Shown: positions 21,920-34,207 of the stretch, one piece after another | Numbering within the stretch: the stretch's first letter is position 1 | Layout of the letters: each line of letters starts with the position of its first letter | From: Candidatus Omnitrophota bacterium | GTDB taxonomy: Bacteria > Omnitrophota > Gorgyraeia > 2-01-FULL-45-10 | Assembly (NCBI GenBank): GCA_041650935.1 | Contig: JBAZKH010000001.1 | Span: forward strand, 9,243 to 73,242 | Direction: 5' to 3' | DNA: 64,000 bases | Made by a program: the position numbers and the translations under genes | Notes under the pieces: model-generated | Databases searched by the model: none | The model's input: only the letters and a program-made list of their open reading frames with translations | What the model was told of the DNA's origin: nothing

Positions 21920-23020
21920 ATGCAGGAAGCCAAGTTTGCCTGTGGTGAGATAGCGAAATATTTTAAGCCGGCGGGTCTGGACAGCCTGGTCCATTTCGTG
22001 ACCTATAAGTGTAATGCCAGATGCGCGCACTGTTTCTTCTCGAAGCAGCTCAACAAAGAAGGCGAGCTCTCCAGGGACGAAATTTTCCGCATGATCGGGA
22101 AACTCGGGAAACTGAAAGGGCTCCTCATCTCCGGCGGAGAGCCGTTTTTGCGGGACGACCTTGCCGGGATCGTGGCCGAATATGCGCTCAGGTGCGGCGT
22201 TGCCGTAGCATCGATTCCCACAAACGGATTTAATACGGACCGGATTATCGGCGCCTGTGAAACCATCTTAGGAAAGTGTAAGAACCTGAACCTGACCGTG
22301 GCTGTCTCCATCGACGCTCTCCACGATGATCATGACAGGCGGCGCGGTTTCCCGGGCGGGTTTGCCAGGGCCGCAGAGACCGCCCGGACTCTTGTCGAGT
22401 TGAAAAAGGCTTATCCGCGTTTGCGCGTGCATATCGTTACGGTTATAATGCCCGACAATGCAAAGACCGTCAGGGCCGTCTCCGGGTTTGTCCGGGACCG
22501 GATCGACCCCGATTATCACTGGTTTGAGCCTATGCGCCGGTTGTCCGGGAAGAGTCTTCCCCTGGAAGGTATCGCGCCGGATGAGTTGAGGAGATTTTTA
22601 AACGAGAATATCATATACTATTTTAAGAAGATCAAAGGCAGTTCGCAGAATATATATTCGAGCCGCAGGCTGAATAACGCCATAATAAATTTTGCGCTCA
22701 ACAACCTTAATATTGCGCTCGACAATTTCTTAGACGGCAAGAGATGGCCGGTCAAATGTGTCGCTGGCAGGAGGATAGCGGTCCTTTACCCGGACGGCGC
22801 CGTCTCGGCCTGCGAACTGCGTGAGCCGGTAGCGACGGTGCGCGATTTCGGTTATGATCTGCGGAGGTTGTTAAAGGACTATAAGTTTAAGGATGAAGTC
22901 AGGGATATATCGAAGGGGAACTGCAGCTGCTTCCACGGCTGTTTCATACCTCCTTCCGTCAGGTTCGATCCGCTCCAGATGGGCCGGCTGGCGTTTAAGA
23001 CGCTTTTCACCAAATACTAA
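21920..23020 (+). CDS. radical SAM enzyme with C-terminal SPASM/twitch-like Cys-rich domain
   Basis: FVTYKCNARCAHCF CxxxCxxC, GGEP motif, C-terminal ..GNCSCFHGCF Cys cluster. 366 aa. Confidence 0.6.
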   Translation: MQEAKFACGEIAKYFKPAGLDSLVHFVTYKCNARCAHCFFSKQLNKEGELSRDEIFRMIGKLGKLKGLLISGGEPFLRDDLAGIVAEYALRCGVAVASIPTNGFNTDRIIGACETILGKCKNLNLTVAVSIDALHDDHDRRRGFPGGFARAAETARTLVELKKAYPRLRVHIVTVIMPDNAKTVRAVSGFVRDRIDPDYHWFEPMRRLSGKSLPLEGIAPDELRRFLNENIIYYFKKIKGSSQNIYSSRRLNNAIINFALNNLNIALDNFLDGKRWPVKCVAGRRIAVLYPDGAVSACELREPVATVRDFGYDLRRLLKDYKFKDEVRDISKGNCSCFHGCFIPPSVRFDPLQMGRLAFKTLFTKY

Positions 23021-23042
23021 AAAGGAGCCAGGAGACGCCAAG

Positions 23043-23747
23043 ATGAAGACGACCTTAATATTACCTACTTTGAATGAATTGGGCGGCATGAAAGAGATCA
23101 TGCCCAAGATAAAGAAGGAATGGTTCGACCAGATAATAGTGGTAGACGGCGGGTCGACGGACGGAACGATAGAATATGCCAGAGATAACGGCTACTCCAT
23201 CTACATCCAGAAAGGGAAGGGTTTAAGGCAGGGTCTGCGGGAGATGTGGGGAATGGTCGAAGGGGATATCGTGGTCACTTTCTCTCCCGACGGCAATTCG
23301 ATCCCGGAACTCATCCCGCCGCTTATAGAGAAGATGAAAGGCGGATACGACATGGTGATCGTCTCGCGGTATGCCAAGGGCGCGAGAAGTTACGACGACG
23401 ATTGGCTGACCCGTTTCGGCAACTGGATGTTTACGACGATGATAAACGTCCTTTTCAGGGCGCGTTACGACGACGCCCTTGTAATCTTCCGCGCATATAA
23501 GACAGATCTCATAGACAGGCTGGATATAAATAATGAGGCAAAGTTCCTGACGGCCGCCGAAAGGGCGGGGATACTCATAGGATGGGAACCCCAGCTCTCT
23601 ATCCGCTGTGCCAAGCGGAAACTTAAAGTGGCCGAGATACCGGGCGACGAACCGGCAAGGATATACGGCAAGAGGAAGATGAGACCGTTCCAGTCGGGAT
23701 CGGTCATGCTTGCGCAGATACTTTATGAGATTTTCGTCTGGCGTTAA
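23043..23747 (+). CDS. family-2 glycosyltransferase (DPM1-like)
   Basis: TLILPTLNE...VVDGGSTDGT... from ATG 23043. The track ORF starts at 22893, but its first 50 aa overlap the radical SAM gene and look non-coding. Confidence 0.7.
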   Translation: MKTTLILPTLNELGGMKEIMPKIKKEWFDQIIVVDGGSTDGTIEYARDNGYSIYIQKGKGLRQGLREMWGMVEGDIVVTFSPDGNSIPELIPPLIEKMKGGYDMVIVSRYAKGARSYDDDWLTRFGNWMFTTMINVLFRARYDDALVIFRAYKTDLIDRLDINNEAKFLTAAERAGILIGWEPQLSIRCAKRKLKVAEIPGDEPARIYGKRKMRPFQSGSVMLAQILYEIFVWR

Positions 23748-23761
23748 ATTTTAACGAAAAT

Positions 23762-24733
23762 ATGAAGATGAATAAAGCACAACTTACGGCGCTTTATGAG
23801 ACGATGCTTAAGATCAGGCTCGTCGAGCTGAAGATAGAAGAGCTCTATCCTCAGGACGAGATGCGGACACCCGTCCATCTCTGCATAGGCCAGGAGGCGG
23901 CGCCGGCCGGAGTTTGCGCGAATCTGGAAAAGGACGATTACGTCTTCAGCAACCATCGCGGGCACGGACACTATATCGCCATGGGCGGCGATCTGAGGTC
24001 CATGATCGCCGAATTATACTGCAAAGAGACCGGCTGTTCCAAAGGCCGGGGCGGCTCGATGCATCTTATAGATACCGCCGCCGGGTTCATCGGCAGTTCT
24101 TCGATCGTGGCCGGCAGTATACCTATTGCGACGGGCGCGGCTCTCGCTTCGGTATTACGCAATAGGCGCGGAAGAGTATCCGTAGTCTTCTTCGGCGATG
24201 CGGCCTCCGAGGAGGGCGTCCTCTTCGAGAGCATGAACTTTGCCGCGCTGAAGCGCCTGCCCGTCGTCTATGTGTGCGAGAATAATTTCTATTCGGTCTT
24301 TTCTCATCAAAGCGCAAGGCAGGCCAACTGCGACATCTTCAAAAGGCCGAGAGCGTTCGACATACCTTCATATCTCGCAGACGGGACCGACGCGGCCGAT
24401 GTCTACCTGAAATCACGGAAGGCCGTTTGCGATGCCCGTTCAGGCAGGGGCCCGTCGTTTCTGGAGTGCAGGGCATACCGCTGGAGGGGCCATGCCGGCC
24501 CCGGCGATCCCCTCAAAGACTCTTACAGAAAACCGGGCGAATGGGATGAATGGATCGTGAAGGACCCGGTTAAAAAATTTGAAGGCGTTCTTAAAAAGAA
24601 GAAGGTTATTACGGGTAAAAGTATAGAAAAGCTTCGGGCAAAGATCGAGAGGGAGATCATGGAGGCATTCGAATTTGCCATACGGTCTCCTCTGCCTGCG
24701 CGGAGCGCAGTTGCGGAATATCTGGTGGGTTAG
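23762..24733 (+). CDS. thiamine-diphosphate-dependent dehydrogenase E1 component, alpha subunit (PdhA/AcoA-like)
   Basis: HLCIGQEA...NHRGHGH..GGDL...GGSMH...GIPIATGAA...VVFFGDAASEEG...YVCENN motifs. 323 aa. Confidence 0.75.
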   Translation: MKMNKAQLTALYETMLKIRLVELKIEELYPQDEMRTPVHLCIGQEAAPAGVCANLEKDDYVFSNHRGHGHYIAMGGDLRSMIAELYCKETGCSKGRGGSMHLIDTAAGFIGSSSIVAGSIPIATGAALASVLRNRRGRVSVVFFGDAASEEGVLFESMNFAALKRLPVVYVCENNFYSVFSHQSARQANCDIFKRPRAFDIPSYLADGTDAADVYLKSRKAVCDARSGRGPSFLECRAYRWRGHAGPGDPLKDSYRKPGEWDEWIVKDPVKKFEGVLKKKKVITGKSIEKLRAKIEREIMEAFEFAIRSPLPARSAVAEYLVG

Positions 24734-24737
24734 ATAT

Positions 24738-25781
24738 ATGCCCTGGACAAAAATTTTAATAGAGAAAAAAGCGCCGGACTTCGATGAAGATGCGGGTAAG
24801 GATTTAAGGAAACTTACCGTACCTGAAGCGATACAGGAGACGCTTTCCCAGGCGCTTGCCGTAGATAAGCGGGTCTTTGTGATGGGTCAGGGCGTTGACG
24901 ATCCCTCAGGGATGTTCGGCATGACGCTTGGCCTCCAGGAGAGATACGGCAGACAGAGGGTTTTTGACACGCCTCTATCCGAAAATGCCCTTACCGGCGT
25001 AGCGATAGGCGCGGCGCTTACGGGCATGAGGCCCGTGTACTTTCATAACAGGCCCGACTTTCTTTTACTGGCAATGGACCAGATCGTGAACCACGCCGCG
25101 AAGTATAGTTATATGTTCGGGGGCAAAGTGCGGATCCCGATGGTAATTGCCGCCGTGATAGGCAGGGGATGGGGCTCCGCCGCCCAGCATTCCCAGTCCC
25201 TGCACGGGCTCTTTATGCACGTCCCGGGACTGCGCCTTGTCATGCCGAGCACCGCATACGACGCAAAGGGGCTGTTGGCTGCCGCGATTGCCGACGGTAA
25301 TCCCGTCATATTCATAGAACATCGCTGGCTCTTTAAGCACAAAAGCCATGTCCCGAAAGAGCTATATACTATCCCGTTCGGCAAAGGGCTGGTGCGGCGT
25401 CAGGGCAGGGATGTGACGATCGTGGGAATTTCCTGTATGGTTATAGAGGCCCTGCGCGCGGCGGAGGAACTGGCGCGCGCAGGCTGCAGCGCCGAGGTGA
25501 TCGATCCCAGGACATTGAGGCCGCTCGATGAAGAGGTCATCCTGAAGTCCGTCAGAAAGACAGGGCGTTTATTGATTGCCGATACCGACTGGCGGACTTG
25601 CGGCGCAGCCTCCGAGATCGCTTCGATAGCGGCGCAAAAAGGATTGAAATACCTTAAAGCGCCTGTGAAGATAGTTGCCTGGCCGGACCTGCCGGTCCCG
25701 GCCAGTTATGTCCTAGAGGAGGCTTTTTATCCGGGTAAGGACGATATCGTAAAAACGGTGAAGGAGTTATTGAAAAGATGA
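24738..25781 (+). CDS. thiamine-diphosphate-dependent dehydrogenase E1 component, beta subunit (transketolase-like)
   Basis: KLTVPEAIQETL...VFVMGQGV...FDTPLSENALTGVAIGAAL. ATG 24738, 4 nt after the alpha stop. Confidence 0.75.
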   Translation: MPWTKILIEKKAPDFDEDAGKDLRKLTVPEAIQETLSQALAVDKRVFVMGQGVDDPSGMFGMTLGLQERYGRQRVFDTPLSENALTGVAIGAALTGMRPVYFHNRPDFLLLAMDQIVNHAAKYSYMFGGKVRIPMVIAAVIGRGWGSAAQHSQSLHGLFMHVPGLRLVMPSTAYDAKGLLAAAIADGNPVIFIEHRWLFKHKSHVPKELYTIPFGKGLVRRQGRDVTIVGISCMVIEALRAAEELARAGCSAEVIDPRTLRPLDEEVILKSVRKTGRLLIADTDWRTCGAASEIASIAAQKGLKYLKAPVKIVAWPDLPVPASYVLEEAFYPGKDDIVKTVKELLKR

Positions 25782-26731
25782 AGAAGACGATTAAACGGAT
25801 GAAGATACTGGTTACCGGAGGAGCGGGCTATATAGGATCTGTGCTGGTGCCCGCGCTATTGAAAGAAGGATTTGAGGTTACCGTGATCGATAACTTCATA
25901 TATAATCAGGCCCCGCTGCTGGACTGTTGTCATGACGACAAGCTGACCATAGTCCGCGCGGACGCCAGGGATAAGAGTATAGTTTCCAGATACCTGAAAG
26001 GGGCCGATGCGATATTCCCGCTGGCCTGTCTTACAGGCGCGCCTCTTTGCCAGCAGAATCCTCTCGAGGCCAGGAGCGTAATCGTAGATGCTTTAAAGAT
26101 GATACTGAGCCTGCGCAGCAAAAAGCAGGCCATCATCTATCCGACTACCAACAGCGGCTATGGAATAGGCCAGAAAGGGATCTTCTGCACAGAGCGGACG
26201 CCGTTACGGCCGGTCTCTCTCTACGGAAGACTAAAAGTTGAGGCGGAGAAGGCACTGCTCGACTCAGGTGATTGTATCACATTGAGGCTCGCCACGGCCT
26301 TCGGTATAAGCCCTCGGATGAGGCTCGATCTCCTGGTCAACGATTTCACCTACCGCGCCGTAAACGACCGGTTCATCGTCCTGTTTGAGGCGCACGCGAA
26401 GAGAAATTATATACACGTCCGGGATGTGGCGAAGGCGTTTATACATTGTCTGAATAATTTTCCGTTCCTTAAGGGCGAGCCGTATAACGTAGGCCTTAGT
26501 GACGCCAATTTGAGCAAGCGGGAACTGTGCGCGGAAATAAAAAAACAGGTGCCGGACTTCTATTTTACCGAGGCGCGGATCGGTCATGATCCGGACAAGA
26601 GGGATTATATCGTCAGTAACGAAAAGATAGAACGGACCGGGTACAGACCCGACTATTCCATCCGGAAGGGTATATCGGAATTGATAAAGGGTTACCAGGT
26701 CGTCAGAAGAAACCAGTTCTCAAACGTATGA
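25778..26731 (+). CDS. NAD-dependent epimerase/dehydratase (SDR) acting on a nucleotide sugar
   Basis: ILVTGGAGYIGSVL, YGRLKVEAE (YxxxK). 317 aa. ATGA overlap upstream. Confidence 0.7.
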   Translation: MKKTIKRMKILVTGGAGYIGSVLVPALLKEGFEVTVIDNFIYNQAPLLDCCHDDKLTIVRADARDKSIVSRYLKGADAIFPLACLTGAPLCQQNPLEARSVIVDALKMILSLRSKKQAIIYPTTNSGYGIGQKGIFCTERTPLRPVSLYGRLKVEAEKALLDSGDCITLRLATAFGISPRMRLDLLVNDFTYRAVNDRFIVLFEAHAKRNYIHVRDVAKAFIHCLNNFPFLKGEPYNVGLSDANLSKRELCAEIKKQVPDFYFTEARIGHDPDKRDYIVSNEKIERTGYRPDYSIRKGISELIKGYQVVRRNQFSNV

Positions 26732-26740
26732 GGTGAAAAG

Positions 26741-27748
26741 ATGATAATATCGAGGACGCCTTTCCGCATCTCTTTTTTCGGCGGAGGGACCGATTATCCT
26801 GCGTGGTACAGGGAGAAGAACGGCGCTGTGCTGGCCACCACCATAAATAAGTACTGCTATATCTCCTGCCGTTATCTTCCTCCTTTCTTTGCCCATAAAT
26901 CGCGGATCATCTACTCGAAGATGGAACAGGTCAGGCGGGTATCCGAGATACAGCATCCTTCCGTCCGGGCCTGTCTTACCCTGATGAGGATAAGGGACGG
27001 CGTGGAGATACACCACGACGGAGATTTGCCTGCAAGGACGGGACTCGGGTCGAGTTCTACGTTCACCGTAGGACTGCTTAACTCCCTGGCCGGGCTGAAG
27101 GGCAACATAATATCGAAGATGGATCTGGCCAAGAAAGCTATCCACGTAGAGCAGGATATGCTGAAGGAGAACGTAGGGTCGCAGGACCAGATATCCGCCG
27201 CTTACGGCGGTTTTAACCTGATAGAATTCAGCGGCGACCACAAATTCAAGATACACCCGGTGACTATCAACCATAAAAGGCTCAACCTATTGCAGGACCA
27301 TCTTCTTCTCTTCTTTACGGGGATTTCCCGCTATGCCTCGGAGATAGCCAGGGAGCAGATAAAGAGGATACCGGACAATAAGAGCGAGCTGGGCGAGATC
27401 TTCGACATGGTCCATGAAGCGGTCGACATAGTCAAAGGCAATGCCGGGTTGTCGCGGTTCGGGAGGCTCTTGAACGAGAGCTGGCAGATCAAGAAGAGGT
27501 TATCGAAACTCATAACGACGCCGGAGATAGACGATATATATTACTCTGCCATAAAAGCCGGGGCGATAGGCGGCAAACTCCTCGGAGCCGGAGGGGGAGG
27601 GTTCATTCTCTTCTTTGCCGAACCCGGAGCGCATCCGCGGATCAGGGAGCGGTTAAAGCATCTTCTTAATGTCCCGTTCAAATTCGAAAATTTCGGCAGC
27701 CAGATAATATTCTACGATCCTACCGGTTCGCTCGAGAGGGGCAAATGA
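26741..27748 (+). CDS. hddA: GHMP kinase, D-glycero-alpha-D-manno-heptose 7-phosphate kinase (HddA-like)
   Basis: MIISRTPFRISFFGGGTD, GLGSSSTF (GHMP motif), GAGGGGF. 335 aa. Confidence 0.7.
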   Translation: MIISRTPFRISFFGGGTDYPAWYREKNGAVLATTINKYCYISCRYLPPFFAHKSRIIYSKMEQVRRVSEIQHPSVRACLTLMRIRDGVEIHHDGDLPARTGLGSSSTFTVGLLNSLAGLKGNIISKMDLAKKAIHVEQDMLKENVGSQDQISAAYGGFNLIEFSGDHKFKIHPVTINHKRLNLLQDHLLLFFTGISRYASEIAREQIKRIPDNKSELGEIFDMVHEAVDIVKGNAGLSRFGRLLNESWQIKKRLSKLITTPEIDDIYYSAIKAGAIGGKLLGAGGGGFILFFAEPGAHPRIRERLKHLLNVPFKFENFGSQIIFYDPTGSLERGK

Positions 27749-28467
27749 ACGGATTCAGCCTATCGAAGATAGACGTCCTTATTTTATGCGGCGGTAAAGG
27801 GGAGCGGCTCAAGGGCCTTGCCGGCGAAAAACCCAAGCCGATGGCCGATATCAGCGGCAGGCCGTTCCTCGATATTCTGATAACACACCTGGCGGGTTTC
27901 GGGTTTCGCAGGTTTATCTTATGCGCCGGTTATAAAGGCGAGGTTATCAGGGATTATTATTCGCAAAAACCGCAGGGCAATTCCGAAATTTTAACGATAA
28001 TAGAGAAGCCGCCGCTAGGGACCGCCGGTGCGATAAAGAACGCGGAGCCGGTTATCGGGACCAACCCTTTCCTGGTTTCGAACGGAGACTCGTTCTGCAA
28101 GCTCGATTACTTTGAATTTGTTAAAGACCATTTCGCAAGAGGCTCTTCATATTCTATGGTCGTAGCCAAGTCGTCGGGTAACCGGGACTGCGGCCTGGTT
28201 AAGCTGAACGATGCCGGCAGGATAACGGGATTTAGCGAGAAAAAGGAGAGCGCGGGCGACGGGTATGTGAATGCCGGCATCTATCTGCTGGATAAGAAGA
28301 TATTTGCCCTTATAAAACGCGGCAAGAAGACGTCGCTGGAACACGACATCTTTCCTGGATTAGCCGGTAAGGATTTTTACGGTTACCCGGTAAATAACGT
28401 TCTTACGGATATAGGGACGCCCGAAAGATATTTGCGGGCCCGGAAACTTTTTGACGATGCAGGCTAA
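27745..28467 (+). CDS. hddC: D-glycero-alpha-D-manno-heptose 1-phosphate guanylyltransferase-like nucleotidyltransferase (HddC-like)
   Basis: VLILCGGKGERLKGL nucleotidyltransferase motif, 240 aa, directly downstream of hddA-like. Confidence 0.6.
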   Translation: MNGFSLSKIDVLILCGGKGERLKGLAGEKPKPMADISGRPFLDILITHLAGFGFRRFILCAGYKGEVIRDYYSQKPQGNSEILTIIEKPPLGTAGAIKNAEPVIGTNPFLVSNGDSFCKLDYFEFVKDHFARGSSYSMVVAKSSGNRDCGLVKLNDAGRITGFSEKKESAGDGYVNAGIYLLDKKIFALIKRGKKTSLEHDIFPGLAGKDFYGYPVNNVLTDIGTPERYLRARKLFDDAG

Positions 28468-29902
28468 ACCGCTAGACCTTCTTATAATAAAACCCGGAAG
28501 CCAGAAGATACTATACGGCGACCTGAGCAGGACTTTATCCGCCCTCGAGCCGCCGCTCTGGGCGGCGCTCCTTGCGGCATTCGTAAGAGACGCAGGTTTT
28601 AGCGTAAAGATTATCGATATGGAGATAGGGCCGGATAGTCTTTTGCCTATCCTGCGGGAAGAGAGTCCGCGTCTTGCGGCTATTGCGGTCTCCGGCACAA
28701 ATCCTTCCGCTTCTACAATGAACATGATAGGAGCCCGGGCGGTCCTGGGAAGTATCAGGCGGTCGAATGCGTCTATCGCGACTATCCTGATGGGTCTGCA
28801 CCCATCCGCTCTGCCGGAGAGGACTCTTAAAGAAGAGCCTGTGGATATGGTCTGCCAGGGCGAAGGTTTTCATACGCTTACGGATATTTTAAGCGGCCGG
28901 GCGAATAAAGGAATAAAAGGGTTGTGGTATAGGGACGGTGACCGTATAAAAAGTAGTCCTATGGCAGAGCTGGCCGACCCGGACAAACTTCCGTCTCCGG
29001 CCTTCGATCTTCTGCCCATGCCAAGCTACAGGGCGCATAATTGGCACAGCTGGACCAATAAGTCGGAGCGTCAGCCGTATGGAGTTATCTATACGAGCCT
29101 GGGATGCCCGTATAACTGCTCTTTCTGCTGTATCAATGCTCTATTCGGCGTCCATAAGATACGGCAGAGGTCTCCGGACCTGGTCATAGAGGATATCGCC
29201 TGCCTCGTCGATAATTACGGGGTCAAAAATATAAAGATAATAGACGAGATGTTCGCTTTCAAGGAAGCGCATGTCGATAAATTGTGCGATCTGATCGTCG
29301 AGCGCGGGTATGACCTGAACATATGGGCCTATGCGAGGGTCGATACGCTTACCAAAGGCATGGTCGGTAAGATGAAGAGCTCCGGCATAAACTGGCTCGC
29401 CCTGGGCTTCGAATCGGGGAGCAAAAAGGTAAGGGACGGTGTTACAAAGGGCAGGTTCGGAAATAAAGAGGTACTCGCCTCCGTCAGGATGATACGGGAT
29501 GCCGGCATCGGTATAATCGGCAACTTCATCTTCGGCCTGCCTAACGACGATATAGATACGATGAACGAGACGCTCGAGATGGCAAAAGAGCTTAATTGCG
29601 AGTATACGAATTTCTACGTCTGTATGGCCTATCCCGGCTCGCGGCTTTACGGCGAGACCGACCCGGCATATCTGCCGGAGTCATGGGAAGGTTATTCGCA
29701 GTTCGGTTACGAGACAAAACCTCTCCCGACGAAATGCCTGCGCCCTGAAGAGGTGCTGGCTTTCAGGGACCGGGCTTTCATAGATTTTTATGGCAGCCGG
29801 CGGTATCAGGATATGATGGCCGCGCGGTTCGGGACGAAGGTGCAGGGCGAGATAAAAAACATGCTTGAATATAAACTGGCCAGGAGACTATTAAGTGTCT
29901 AA
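28457..29902 (+). CDS. cobalamin-binding (class B) radical SAM enzyme #3
   Basis: B12-binding N-domain, SLGCPYNCSFCCI. ATG 28457, with an in-frame TTG at 28451. Confidence 0.75.
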   Translation: MQAKPLDLLIIKPGSQKILYGDLSRTLSALEPPLWAALLAAFVRDAGFSVKIIDMEIGPDSLLPILREESPRLAAIAVSGTNPSASTMNMIGARAVLGSIRRSNASIATILMGLHPSALPERTLKEEPVDMVCQGEGFHTLTDILSGRANKGIKGLWYRDGDRIKSSPMAELADPDKLPSPAFDLLPMPSYRAHNWHSWTNKSERQPYGVIYTSLGCPYNCSFCCINALFGVHKIRQRSPDLVIEDIACLVDNYGVKNIKIIDEMFAFKEAHVDKLCDLIVERGYDLNIWAYARVDTLTKGMVGKMKSSGINWLALGFESGSKKVRDGVTKGRFGNKEVLASVRMIRDAGIGIIGNFIFGLPNDDIDTMNETLEMAKELNCEYTNFYVCMAYPGSRLYGETDPAYLPESWEGYSQFGYETKPLPTKCLRPEEVLAFRDRAFIDFYGSRRYQDMMAARFGTKVQGEIKNMLEYKLARRLLSV

Positions 29903-31130
29903 AAAAAAGCGGAAAGATAATGCGGTGCAGGTTACGTTCGGAACGGTATCTATAGACAATAGATCCAAGCGGCTCGTAAGGGATATACTCGATTCTAACC
30001 GGGTTTCGAGCGGCAGCCATGTCCGCGAGTTCGAAAGAAGGTTCGCCGCGCTTATCGGCGCCAGAGCGGCTGTAGCGCTTAGTTCCGGGACGGATGCCGA
30101 TGCGCTCGCGTTGGCGGTATTGTACGATTTCGGCGCGCGCCGCGGCGACGATATCATAGTCCCGGCGCTATCTTTTGTCGCGACGGGAAATGCCGTCCTG
30201 CAGGCAGGTTTCAACCCCGTCTTCGTCGACGTGGACAGGGGAACGCTCAATATCGACCCCTTGAAGATAGAGTCTGCCATAACGCGGAAGACTAGAGCGA
30301 TAATGCCTGTCCATCTCATGGGCAAGCCGGCGCCGATGGATGAGATAAAAAGGATCGCGCGGCGGCATAAGCTATTCGTCATAGAAGATGCCGCCGAGGC
30401 GCATGGCGCTAAATATAAAGGAAAGAATATCGGTACGCTGGGCGACATGGGGGCATTCAGCCTTTACGTGGCCCACATAATAACGACGATAGAGGGCGGT
30501 GTGGTGGTTACGGACAGGCCTGAGTTTGCGGAGATACTGAGGTCGCTCAGGTCGCACGGCAGGGCCTGTAAGTGCGAAAGGTGCGTCCTGAATATCTCTT
30601 CCGGGTATTGCCCGAAGAGATTCAGCGGAGAGAATAAGGACGACATAAGGTTCGTCTTCGAGAGGATAGGATTTTCGTGCAAGATGAACGAACTGGAGGC
30701 GGCTGTAGGGCTCGGCAATATAGGCAAATACGCAAAGATAGTCGAGGCAAGGAGGCGGAACCTTAAATATCTGATGAAAAAGTTCCGCCGGTTCAGCCCT
30801 TATCTTGCGACGATCAGCGAGGAGCGTTACGAGCGTATCGGCCCTCACGCCTTTCCCGTAATAATACAGGCGGCGGCCGGATTTACAAGGAACGAGATAG
30901 TCGATTACCTCGAAAAAAACGGCGTCGAAACCCGCACGCTATTTTCATCGATGCCGACACAGTGTGCCGGTTTCAAGTACCTGGGATACAAAGAAGGCGA
31001 TTTCCCGAATGCCGAATATATCGGCAATAACGGTTTTCACATTGGTGTGCACCAGGGCCTGAAGCGCTGTCACCTGGATCATTTCCTCGGGCTCGTCGCT
31101 GAATTTTTGGATAGATGCGATAGACGGTAA
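29895..31130 (+). CDS. DegT-fold PLP/PMP-dependent sugar 3-dehydratase-like enzyme (ColD/E1 RfbH-like; His replaces the Schiff-base Lys)
   Basis: GTG start. FSLYVAHIITTIEGG aligns with the aminotransferase FS..aiK.ittgEGG block with H in place of K, as in ColD and CDP-6-deoxy-L-threo-D-glycero-4-hexulose 3-dehydrase. Extra CKCERC...C cysteine cluster. Confidence 0.55.
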   Translation: MSKKKRKDNAVQVTFGTVSIDNRSKRLVRDILDSNRVSSGSHVREFERRFAALIGARAAVALSSGTDADALALAVLYDFGARRGDDIIVPALSFVATGNAVLQAGFNPVFVDVDRGTLNIDPLKIESAITRKTRAIMPVHLMGKPAPMDEIKRIARRHKLFVIEDAAEAHGAKYKGKNIGTLGDMGAFSLYVAHIITTIEGGVVVTDRPEFAEILRSLRSHGRACKCERCVLNISSGYCPKRFSGENKDDIRFVFERIGFSCKMNELEAAVGLGNIGKYAKIVEARRRNLKYLMKKFRRFSPYLATISEERYERIGPHAFPVIIQAAAGFTRNEIVDYLEKNGVETRTLFSSMPTQCAGFKYLGYKEGDFPNAEYIGNNGFHIGVHQGLKRCHLDHFLGLVAEFLDRCDRR

Positions 31131-31134
31131 AATT

Positions 31135-32058
31135 ATGAAAAGAGACTCGAAGATATTGATAATCGGCTGGAAGAGTCCGGTGGGGCAAAGACTCGCGGAA
31201 CGCCTTAAGGCCGATGATTTTAAGCGGATAATTACTATGCCGGAGGGAGGCTTGTCAAGACAGTCTGCCGTCGAGAGATTCTTTAAGAGTAAGAGGCCTC
31301 GCTACGTCTTCTTCATGGATGTCAGGTCGGGAGGGATCGCCGCCAATTCGGCTTATCCGGCGGAATTTATCTATGATAATCTTAGCGCGGAATTGAATGT
31401 GATCCACGCCTCATATAAAACGGGGGTAAAGAGGCTGCTCTTTATGGCCAGCTCCTGCTCATATCCGAAAGCCTGTCTTCAGCCGATGAGAGAAGAGTAT
31501 ATTTTGAGCGGGCCGCTTGAACCTACGAGCGCGGCCTTCGCTATAGCGAAGATAGCGGGGATGAAGATGTGCCAGTATTACAACCGCCAATATGGCACTA
31601 GTTTTGTATGCGTGATCCCGGCTACAGCGTACGGTCCGGGCGATGATTTCGACATCGGAACCTCTCATGTGATCCCGGCGCTTATCCATAAGATACATAG
31701 CGCTAAGACGGGCGGCCGGAGCAGTGTTACCATATGGGGTACGGGATCTCCGCGGCGTGAATTTATCCATGCCGATGACCTGGCTGACGCCGCCATAAAG
31801 ATAATGCTGGATAAGAAAGCCCCGCCGGTTATAAATATAGGTACGGGTCACGACGTTTCTATAAAAGAACTGGCGCTGCTCCTTAAAGATATAACAGGAT
31901 TCAGGGGCAAGCTTAAATTCGACCGCGCAAAACCCGACGGTGCTTACCGTAAACTGCTCGATATATCCAAATTGAAATCTACAGGCTGGATGCCTAGAGT
32001 AGACCTTAGGACAGGCCTTGAAGATCTCTATAAGTGGTACCTGAAGCATGCGGCATAA
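31135..32058 (+). CDS. GDP-L-fucose synthase-like 3,5-epimerase/4-reductase (Fcl/ColC family)
   Basis: About 307 aa SDR with the Fcl-like order (KILIIG..., YAIAKIAG YxxxK, WGTGSPRREF). Confidence 0.6.
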   Translation: MKRDSKILIIGWKSPVGQRLAERLKADDFKRIITMPEGGLSRQSAVERFFKSKRPRYVFFMDVRSGGIAANSAYPAEFIYDNLSAELNVIHASYKTGVKRLLFMASSCSYPKACLQPMREEYILSGPLEPTSAAFAIAKIAGMKMCQYYNRQYGTSFVCVIPATAYGPGDDFDIGTSHVIPALIHKIHSAKTGGRSSVTIWGTGSPRREFIHADDLADAAIKIMLDKKAPPVINIGTGHDVSIKELALLLKDITGFRGKLKFDRAKPDGAYRKLLDISKLKSTGWMPRVDLRTGLEDLYKWYLKHAA

Positions 32059-34207
32059 ATATAAAAGAATCCTCTATATTTGCGCCGCCCTTCTTGTGGC
32101 GGGCATCTTTTTAGCGCTCCTTTACCAACCCATACAGGCTTCTTTCCACGAGCAGGATCTCTGGTGGATGGTCCCCGCGATATCGTCGCTTACGGAGGGC
32201 CGCTCTATCCTGGAAAACCTGAAACTCTTCCTCTTCAATCCATATCCCACGCATCAGGGGGACCCGGGGATGAACATTTATTTAGCGCTGGTGCTCTCGA
32301 CATTCGGTTTCGAGACGAAATATTTTCTTTTTATATTAGTCGCGCTCCATCTCCTCTCGGCGTTTCTCTTCTATACTCTCCTGCGGAGAATGGGACTGGA
32401 ATTCCGGATCGCCTTCTTTTCAGCCATTGTATATCTGGCGACTTTCATCCATTTCAGTTACTATACATGGCCCATGTCGGCCCACCATCTTTTTGTGCTC
32501 TTCCTGAGCCTTGTCATCCTGAACCTGTACTTCGAGACTACCGCAAGGTTCGACGCTAAAGGTAACTGGAAGCCGGTCTACTGGCTTACCATAGGCGTTA
32601 ACTTCCTGGCGCCGTTCTGCCAGATAACGATCCTTCTATTGCCGGCCGCTATCCTCGCCCATATACTCATATCGGCCAAAGACGGCGGGGAGAGGCTCAA
32701 AAAATACGACTTATGGCTGCCGCTGTTCATAACCTATCTGGGTTACCCGGTGATGCGGTTTCTCTGTGTCGGCTATATCCATCTCGAGCGGTTCCTCCAT
32801 TTTGCCAATAATGCGTCGAGAAATATGGCGCTATTCCCGGCGGTCTTTGCGGCAGGGGTCGGCGCGTTATTTATCTTCAGGGGTTTCATAAAATACTCGT
32901 CCAGGTATAAACTGGGCAGGATATTCAAGATCCTGTGCATAGCCGCGGTGGTCCTGTATCTAGCCGTCTTCATTGCGGTCTCCGGCAGAAGCGATCTCAC
33001 CTCGCCCAGCAAGGTCAAACTGCATGACTTCTTGTCGCCATACAATTTTCTCAGACCCTTCGGCATAATGTTCATGAATTTCATATCGCCTATCAGGTCG
33101 GCATTATCCATCGACTCGACGATGACCTACCATATAATACCTCCGCGCGATACCCTCGCCGGTAATTTAATATGCCTCCTGCTTATAGGCATCTTCGTAA
33201 GCAAGTATCTTTTTAAGCATAGAGGGCTCATCGTCTTCCTGCTATTCTATGCCGTTGCCTTGCGCTATATGCGCATATTGACGACCATGCTATATTCCCG
33301 CCACTTCCTTTATGTCACGCCATTATTCGCCGTGGTCTTTTCCGGGTCTTTCGTATATATCTACGACTGGATCATCTCCCGTATCAAGTTGAAGAAGGTA
33401 ATACAGGAGATCGTCCTGGTCATTATCTTCGTCGGGCTTTGCGTTCCGAATATATTTGCGATAAAGACTGCTTTGGCGCGGGGCAGGCTGGTGAATACCT
33501 TTTTGATATACGATTATATCAGGGCGGCCAATATAATTAAGAATGATACCGTTTCCACGCCCGGCCGTATTAACGCGAACGATATATCTATCAAGGGTGT
33601 GGTGCCGATGCCTTTCAATGTCGATGAATACTGGAGCCCCGGGCCCGGCGATCCGTTGAGATTTGCCCCGTTCCGGTATGCCTTCGGGCAGGTCTTTAAC
33701 GACAGGTCTATGGCCGGTATCAATATAAATCGTCCCGCGGCGGCGGGTAGGCCGGCCTATGAGATAAGGGATTTCAGGGTATATGATTCGCATGGCCGGA
33801 ACGTAGACAGGTTTAGTTCTTGCGTCGACGAGGGACTGCAAGAGCTGAGGATGGGAAATGATAAGAAGGCCTTGTCGGCATTTAATGAAGCTATAAAAGT
33901 GCGGCCGTTCCTATTTAAATTTATTCTCCCCGGAGATAAGTTAAGCGATATCGGGTGGATTACAAACGGCACCGATCTTAAGACCTGGATAAAGGATATT
34001 TATAATTATAATAATAATTGTGACGAAGAGTTTTATGTTGCGAAAATTAAATATGTCCAGGCTACGATTACAAGCGAGATAGCCGATTACCTTAAGGCCC
34101 TTTCTTGTGCCGCGTCCCTGGATGAGAAGCTTGGAAGGGCGGCGGAGTCTAAGGAGCTCCTGTCGTATATACGCTATATCGATAGTAATTATTCTATTGA
34201 CAAGTGA
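32048..34207 (+). CDS. polytopic membrane protein with GT-C-like (ArnT/PMT-type) N-terminal domain and C-terminal TPR-like region
   Basis: About 12 TM helices over the first ~470 aa, an early loop with an HEQD acidic motif, and a soluble C-terminus with TPR-like repeats (FNEAIKVRP...). 719 aa. Confidence 0.4.
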   Translation: MRHKYKRILYICAALLVAGIFLALLYQPIQASFHEQDLWWMVPAISSLTEGRSILENLKLFLFNPYPTHQGDPGMNIYLALVLSTFGFETKYFLFILVALHLLSAFLFYTLLRRMGLEFRIAFFSAIVYLATFIHFSYYTWPMSAHHLFVLFLSLVILNLYFETTARFDAKGNWKPVYWLTIGVNFLAPFCQITILLLPAAILAHILISAKDGGERLKKYDLWLPLFITYLGYPVMRFLCVGYIHLERFLHFANNASRNMALFPAVFAAGVGALFIFRGFIKYSSRYKLGRIFKILCIAAVVLYLAVFIAVSGRSDLTSPSKVKLHDFLSPYNFLRPFGIMFMNFISPIRSALSIDSTMTYHIIPPRDTLAGNLICLLLIGIFVSKYLFKHRGLIVFLLFYAVALRYMRILTTMLYSRHFLYVTPLFAVVFSGSFVYIYDWIISRIKLKKVIQEIVLVIIFVGLCVPNIFAIKTALARGRLVNTFLIYDYIRAANIIKNDTVSTPGRINANDISIKGVVPMPFNVDEYWSPGPGDPLRFAPFRYAFGQVFNDRSMAGININRPAAAGRPAYEIRDFRVYDSHGRNVDRFSSCVDEGLQELRMGNDKKALSAFNEAIKVRPFLFKFILPGDKLSDIGWITNGTDLKTWIKDIYNYNNNCDEEFYVAKIKYVQATITSEIADYLKALSCAASLDEKLGRAAESKELLSYIRYIDSNYSIDK

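Follow-up and report, generated by a model that had tools for sequence, protein, structure and literature searches.

A conserved gene cassette in Candidatus Omnitrophota that most likely makes a 3-deoxy, carbon-branched surface sugar from GDP-heptose

The window analysed here is a 64-kb stretch of DNA from a Candidatus Omnitrophota MAG. The six ORFs that the initial annotation had flagged as a heptose module were all recovered at its coordinates, on the plus strand and packed tightly or overlapping. Together with their neighbors they form the following series.

22893..23747, plus strand: GT2 glycosyltransferase (Pfam Glycos_transf_2; true start probably near 23034)
23762..24733, plus strand: PDH-E1 alpha-like thiamine-diphosphate (ThDP) subunit (Pfam E1_dh, 3.9e-62; TIGR03182, 306 bits against a cut-off of 394)
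24738..25781, plus strand: PDH-E1 beta-like subunit (Transket_pyr and Transketolase_C; NF006667, 327 bits against a cut-off of 321)
25778..26731, plus strand: SDR, Cj1427-like GDP-heptose C4-dehydrogenase (Pfam Epimerase, 2.3e-28; Met start likely at 25799)
26741..27748, plus strand: HddA-like GHMP sugar kinase, heptose-7-phosphate 1-kinase (Pfam GHMP_kinases_N and C)
27745..28467, plus strand: HddC-like sugar-1-phosphate guanylyltransferase (Pfam NTP_transferase)
28451..29902, plus strand: class B (B12-binding) radical SAM (rSAM) enzyme (B12-binding and Radical_SAM; ATG at 28457)
29895..31130, plus strand: PMP-dependent C3-dehydrase, E1/SpnQ-like (Pfam DegT fold, 2.1e-96)
31135..32058, plus strand: Fcl-like protein (NF047922, 373 bits against a cut-off of 500)
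32048..34207, plus strand: polytopic membrane protein of 719 aa, whose start overlaps the stop of the Fcl-like gene

The best explanation for positions 23762 to 32058 is a single operon segment, which carries a conserved cassette for making a modified GDP-heptose. Its relatives are common to uncultured anaerobic bacteria across many phyla, every one of them coming from MAGs or metagenomes. We compared 36 well-flanked loci anchored on the DegT gene and 17 anchored on the kinase gene. In the DegT-anchored set, the kinase was found in 33 loci, the rSAM gene in 27 and the Fcl-like gene in 20. A split ThDP enzyme, which the initial annotation did not mention, was present in 33 of the DegT-anchored and 16 of the kinase-anchored loci, a linkage to the cassette as tight as that seen for the kinase. 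It occurs in three forms (13 PDH-type, 10 transketolase-type and 10 small-type), never two in one locus. The alpha-like subunit seen here, which aligns with human PDH E1alpha and retains the ThDP motif GD(A)x..NN, is kept with the cassette in 21 of 76 family loci and is replaced elsewhere by other split ThDP enzymes. For the beta-like subunit, the listed ORF begins with a TTG at 24675, while homologues of 346 to 349 aa favor the ATG at 24738. No E2 or E3 genes accompanying the pair were found with Pfam. One locus (L034) holds the DegT-His, ThDP pair and B12-rSAM genes plus an aldo-keto reductase of the same family as the branch ketoreductase Pau7; both kinase and transferase are missing there.

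The nature of the activated sugar was addressed through the kinase and guanylyltransferase. HddA was the best NCBIfam model for the kinase (153 bits, under the cut-off of 600), and its best PDB matches were all heptose kinases (3K85, 131 bits; C. jejuni 4N3O, 126 bits; WcbL 4USK, 120 bits), compared to only 64 bits for Fkp. Identity to characterized HddA proteins is about 30%. The guanylyltransferase had Y. pseudotuberculosis HddC (5XHW/6JQ8, 131 bits) as its top PDB match, against 90 bits for GDP-mannose pyrophosphorylase and 63 bits for Glc-1-P cytidylyltransferase; the HddC NCBIfam model gave 118 bits against a cut-off of 300. Neither GmhA nor GmhB was found within the 64-kb window. In five related loci (L007, L017, L021, L025 and L072), GmhA adjoins the kinase or transferase gene of the cassette; at least 17 loci have GmhB-like genes. 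These neighbors, the HddA/HddC matches and the Cj1427-like SDR back the GDP-heptose precursor proposed initially.

The SDR had been taken for a possible 4,6-dehydratase, a reading that its close relationship to Cj1427 contradicts. It matched PDB entries 6VO6/6VO8 over its full length with 410 bits (E 5.7e-122; about 62% identity). We recognized this chain as Cj1427 by the peptide RAFKMMKV, which is encoded by primer Cj1427cF918 (PMC3546167); Cj1427 of C. jejuni is a GDP-heptose C4-dehydrogenase (PMC10680097). SDR homologues from related cassettes share 60 to 75% identity. The Y-x3-K motif is kept and the dehydratase Asp/Glu residues are missing, the motif reading PTTNSGYG compared to STSELYG in Gmd and STDEVYG in an RmlB-like protein. 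Moreover, a GMD-like gene was present in none of the 78 loci of this Cys-loop DegT family. Thus, a 6-deoxy- or 3,6-dideoxy-heptose, the product suggested initially, is not predicted. Nor would the latter be new, since C. jejuni HS:5 and HS:11 make GDP-3,6-dideoxyheptoses via a 4,6-dehydratase, a 3-dehydratase and an epimerase/reductase (PMC10440746).

We then considered the DegT-fold protein. As described in the initial annotation, it carries a His in the AHII motif at the PLP-lysine position and a C-x-C-x2-C-x8-C cluster. In the alignment, His194 (FSLYVAH194IITT) falls on His220 of E1, His188 of ColD and the Lys of perosamine synthase, so that the Schiff-base position is indeed His and not Lys. 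The loop C225-K-C227-E-R-C230-x8-C239 aligns with the Cys-rich loop of E1, although E1 Cys193, the first ligand of the cluster there, has no conserved counterpart. His194 and the four Cys are retained in 120 of the 120 closest database homologues and are invariant in an alignment of 27 sequences, a conservation far beyond chance. E1 and SpnQ are defined by a His and a four-Cys [2Fe-2S] site (PMC8987622), and the loop is a probable Fe-S site, the AF2 model being unreliable in exactly that region. The protein is about 28 to 33% identical to E1, SpnQ and ColD and 33% identical to the characterized C3-dehydratase of C. jejuni HS:5, and it scored 270 against a cut-off of 423 with the RfbH NCBIfam model. 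It forms its own deep Fe-S-type clade apart from ColD. The proposed role as a His-type C3-dehydrase was supported, the grouping with ColD was not. Kinase-anchored sister cassettes lacking this DegT family have a ColD-type His-DegT in its slot, and this replacement supports the C3-dehydrase role. No E3-like reductase was found in the cassette.

The Fcl-like protein scored 302 bits with GDP-fucose synthase 8DU0 and 278 bits with E. coli Fcl. It keeps the equivalents of Cys109, Lys140 and His179 but has Phe at the catalytic Tyr136 and Ser for the second Gly of GxxGxxG. The Phe makes a ColC-type reduction, as assigned earlier, doubtful. Among 34 homologues, Cys109, His179 and Lys140 were invariant, Tyr136 was replaced by Phe in 7 and Ser107 by Gly or Ala in 13; the glycine motif was degenerate in many. 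About half retain the Ser, Tyr, Lys and glycine motif, and those organisms could simply reduce C4. The protein of the window probably epimerizes C5 (C3/C5) and has no 4-reductase activity. Cassettes L015, L016, L019, L021 and L024 hold no reductase candidate, so that the ThDP enzyme alone can consume the 4-ketone there.

The rSAM enzyme, with its CxxxCxxC motif (CPYNCSFC, residues 219 to 226), matched no NCBIfam model up to cut-off, and its best PDB match, AprD4, reached only 53 bits. Its place in the module, suggested initially, was borne out by conserved orthologues across related cassettes: 47 ORFs of related loci best match this gene (35 to 69% identity), while the window's seven further B12-rSAM genes share just 23 to 30% identity with it. 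It is a probable C-methyltransferase.

Parts of this gene set resemble known systems. The capsular heptose modification systems of C. jejuni (HS:2 Cj1427, Cj1430 and Cj1428; HS:5/HS:11) share the Cj1427 orthologue, a His-type PLP/PMP C3-dehydrase and an Fcl-family enzyme (PMC10440746, PMC10680097). By comparison, the cassette lacks a 4,6-dehydratase, so that the C6 hydroxyl is kept, and a cupin epimerase; its dehydrase is Fe-S-type, its Fcl-like protein is without the catalytic Tyr, and it adds the ThDP and B12-rSAM enzymes. So far, Cj1427 and a C3-dehydratase have been brought together only artificially, by mixing them in vitro (PMC10680097). Like the cassette, the colitose pathway (Gmd, ColD, ColC) works on a GDP-linked sugar, uses a His-type 3-dehydrase and ends with a member of the Fcl family, whereas the cassette has no Gmd-type dehydratase, its dehydrase has an Fe-S-type loop and its Fcl-like protein is probably no reductase. 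With E1 (DdhC/RfbH/AscC) and SpnQ, the DegT protein shares the fold, the Ala-His replacing Asn-Lys and a Cys-rich loop located as E1 Cys251, 253 and 261. As for SpnQ, there is no dedicated E3. Here, however, all four Cys lie within that one loop.

The proposed logic of the cassette is shared with the yersiniose, erwiniose and caryophyllose pathways (DdhA-D/E1-E3, the ThDP carboligase YerE/ErwE and the reductase YerF), which also belong to an LPS gene cluster (PMC9306805, PMC8987622): a 4-keto NDP-sugar is deoxygenated at C3 by an E1-type, His-bearing Fe-S enzyme before a ThDP-dependent enzyme adds an acyl group at C4. YerE-type enzymes branch CDP-4-keto-3,6-dideoxyglucose following the E1 step (PMC9306805). 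In contrast to these pathways, the cassette builds on GDP-heptose instead of a CDP-6-deoxyhexose and relies on a dehydrogenase, not a 4,6-dehydratase, to introduce the 4-ketone. Its ThDP enzyme is a split one of the PDH-E1, transketolase or small type instead of an acetolactate-synthase-like flavoprotein, and E3 and an obvious YerF are missing. Orphan PDH E1 alpha and beta subunits without E2/E3 are likewise found in the sugar pathways of avilamycin (AviB1/AviB2) and paulomycin (Pau11/Pau12), a likeness drawn from gene context. These PDH-like proteins add two-carbon branches to 4-keto sugars (PMC4425429), with a pyruvate-derived C2 unit proposed to be moved to C4 (PMC4425429, PMC4753412). They belong to actinomycete antibiotic pathways, where the substrates are (deoxy)hexoses or pentoses that may already have undergone glycosyl transfer.

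Together, the sequence data suggest the following route. Sedoheptulose-7-P would be converted to D-glycero-D-manno-heptose 7-phosphate by a GmhA encoded elsewhere and phosphorylated at C1 by the HddA-like kinase (step 1), and a GmhB encoded elsewhere would remove the 7-phosphate (step 2). The Cj1427 orthologue would oxidize C4, giving GDP-4-keto-heptose with its C6 hydroxyl retained. The His/Cys-loop DegT enzyme would then remove the C3 hydroxyl by PMP chemistry to yield GDP-3-deoxy-4-keto-heptose, the glycoseen intermediate being reduced via the probable Fe-S cluster with a general ferredoxin or flavodoxin feed, as for SpnQ (step 5). Lacking the catalytic Tyr, the Fcl-like protein would only epimerize beside the ketone (step 6). 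Next, the PDH-E1 alpha/beta-like enzyme would decarboxylate pyruvate, and the resulting hydroxyethyl-ThDP carbanion would be added to the ketone at C4; the 4-C-acetyl-3-deoxy-heptose so formed would carry a yersiniose-type branch on a heptose (step 7). Finally, the B12-rSAM enzyme would add a C-methyl group (step 8). Steps 1 to 4 draw on close homology and gene context and step 5 on family features and slot replacement, while we infer steps 6 to 8. Taken as a whole, this route from GDP-heptose through C4 oxidation, C3 deoxygenation, C5 epimerization, ThDP-dependent C4 acyl branching and C-methylation stands, in our estimate, about evenly between right and wrong.

Several other readings were weighed. 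The ThDP enzyme might only supply a precursor such as sedoheptulose-7-P, with Cj1427-like oxidation, C3 dehydration and epimerization ending in C4 reduction by the Fcl-like or another protein and the rSAM enzyme decorating the sugar or polymer at a later stage. We consider this unlikely, though it has points in its favor: the intact reductase residues in about half of the Fcl-like homologues, the transketolase-type pairs that sometimes adjoin GmhA (L007), which fit a precursor-supply role too, and some kinase loci in which a ThDP pair is present but neither a Cj1427-like nor a DegT gene could be detected within 10 kb. However, the PDH-E1-type and small decarboxylase-type enzymes, which are not expected to make sedoheptulose-7-P, share one slot with the transketolase type in a mutually exclusive manner; the Phe at Tyr136 in the window and the several cassettes without any reductase candidate also argue against C4 reduction. 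That the pair is instead a pyruvate-oxidizing, PFOR-like electron source feeding the 3-dehydrase's Fe-S cluster, replacing E3 and forming no C-C bond, would suit its tight linkage to DegT-His in a cassette without an E3-like reductase. This seems to us extremely improbable, as a ThDP pair persists in cassettes with a ColD-type, Cys-loop-free 3-dehydrase (L100, L110, L139, L155 and L162), transketolase-type enzymes do not oxidize 2-oxo acids, and no Fe-S domain was found in the ThDP subunits with Pfam.

Two further readings concern the sugar itself. The kinase and nucleotidyltransferase might activate a hexose, for example, or a salvage substrate used by the cassette, as the distance of both models from their cut-offs, the low kinase identity and the lack of GmhA/GmhB in the window could suggest. 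The roughly 62% identity of the SDR to Cj1427, the higher scores of the HddA/HddC structures over Fkp and ManC and the GmhA or GmhB genes embedded in related cassettes render a non-heptose substrate very unlikely. Still less credit goes to the colitose-type route of the initial annotation, in which a 4,6-dehydratase and ColD- and ColC-like enzymes act on GDP-heptose to give a 3,6-dideoxy- or 6-deoxy-heptose. It has the C. jejuni HS:5/HS:11 precedent (PMC10440746), a superficial likeness of gene order to Gmd-ColD-ColC and a distant locus (L083) with Gmd, His/Cys-loop DegT and Fcl-like genes. Besides the absent dehydratase acids, GMD-like gene and Tyr136 noted above, it leaves the conserved ThDP pair and rSAM enzyme unaccounted for.

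At the edges of the cassette, GT2 homologues (48 to 61% identity) directly adjoin it in L008, L012, L013, L017, L028, L033, L040 and L043, a looser linkage than that of the core genes. The GT2 protein is a putative transferase that may act on the modified heptose. The membrane protein, whose roughly 12 hydrophobic segments precede a soluble C-terminal part, had no Pfam or NCBIfam match and was absent from all related cassettes compared; its membership in the module is uncertain.

In conclusion, the product of the cassette is most likely a 3-deoxy, carbon-branched surface sugar made from GDP-heptose and probably also C-methylated. The predicted branched 3-deoxy-heptose has not been described so far, and the best explanation for its destination is an LPS- or O-antigen-like glycan on the Omnitrophota surface.

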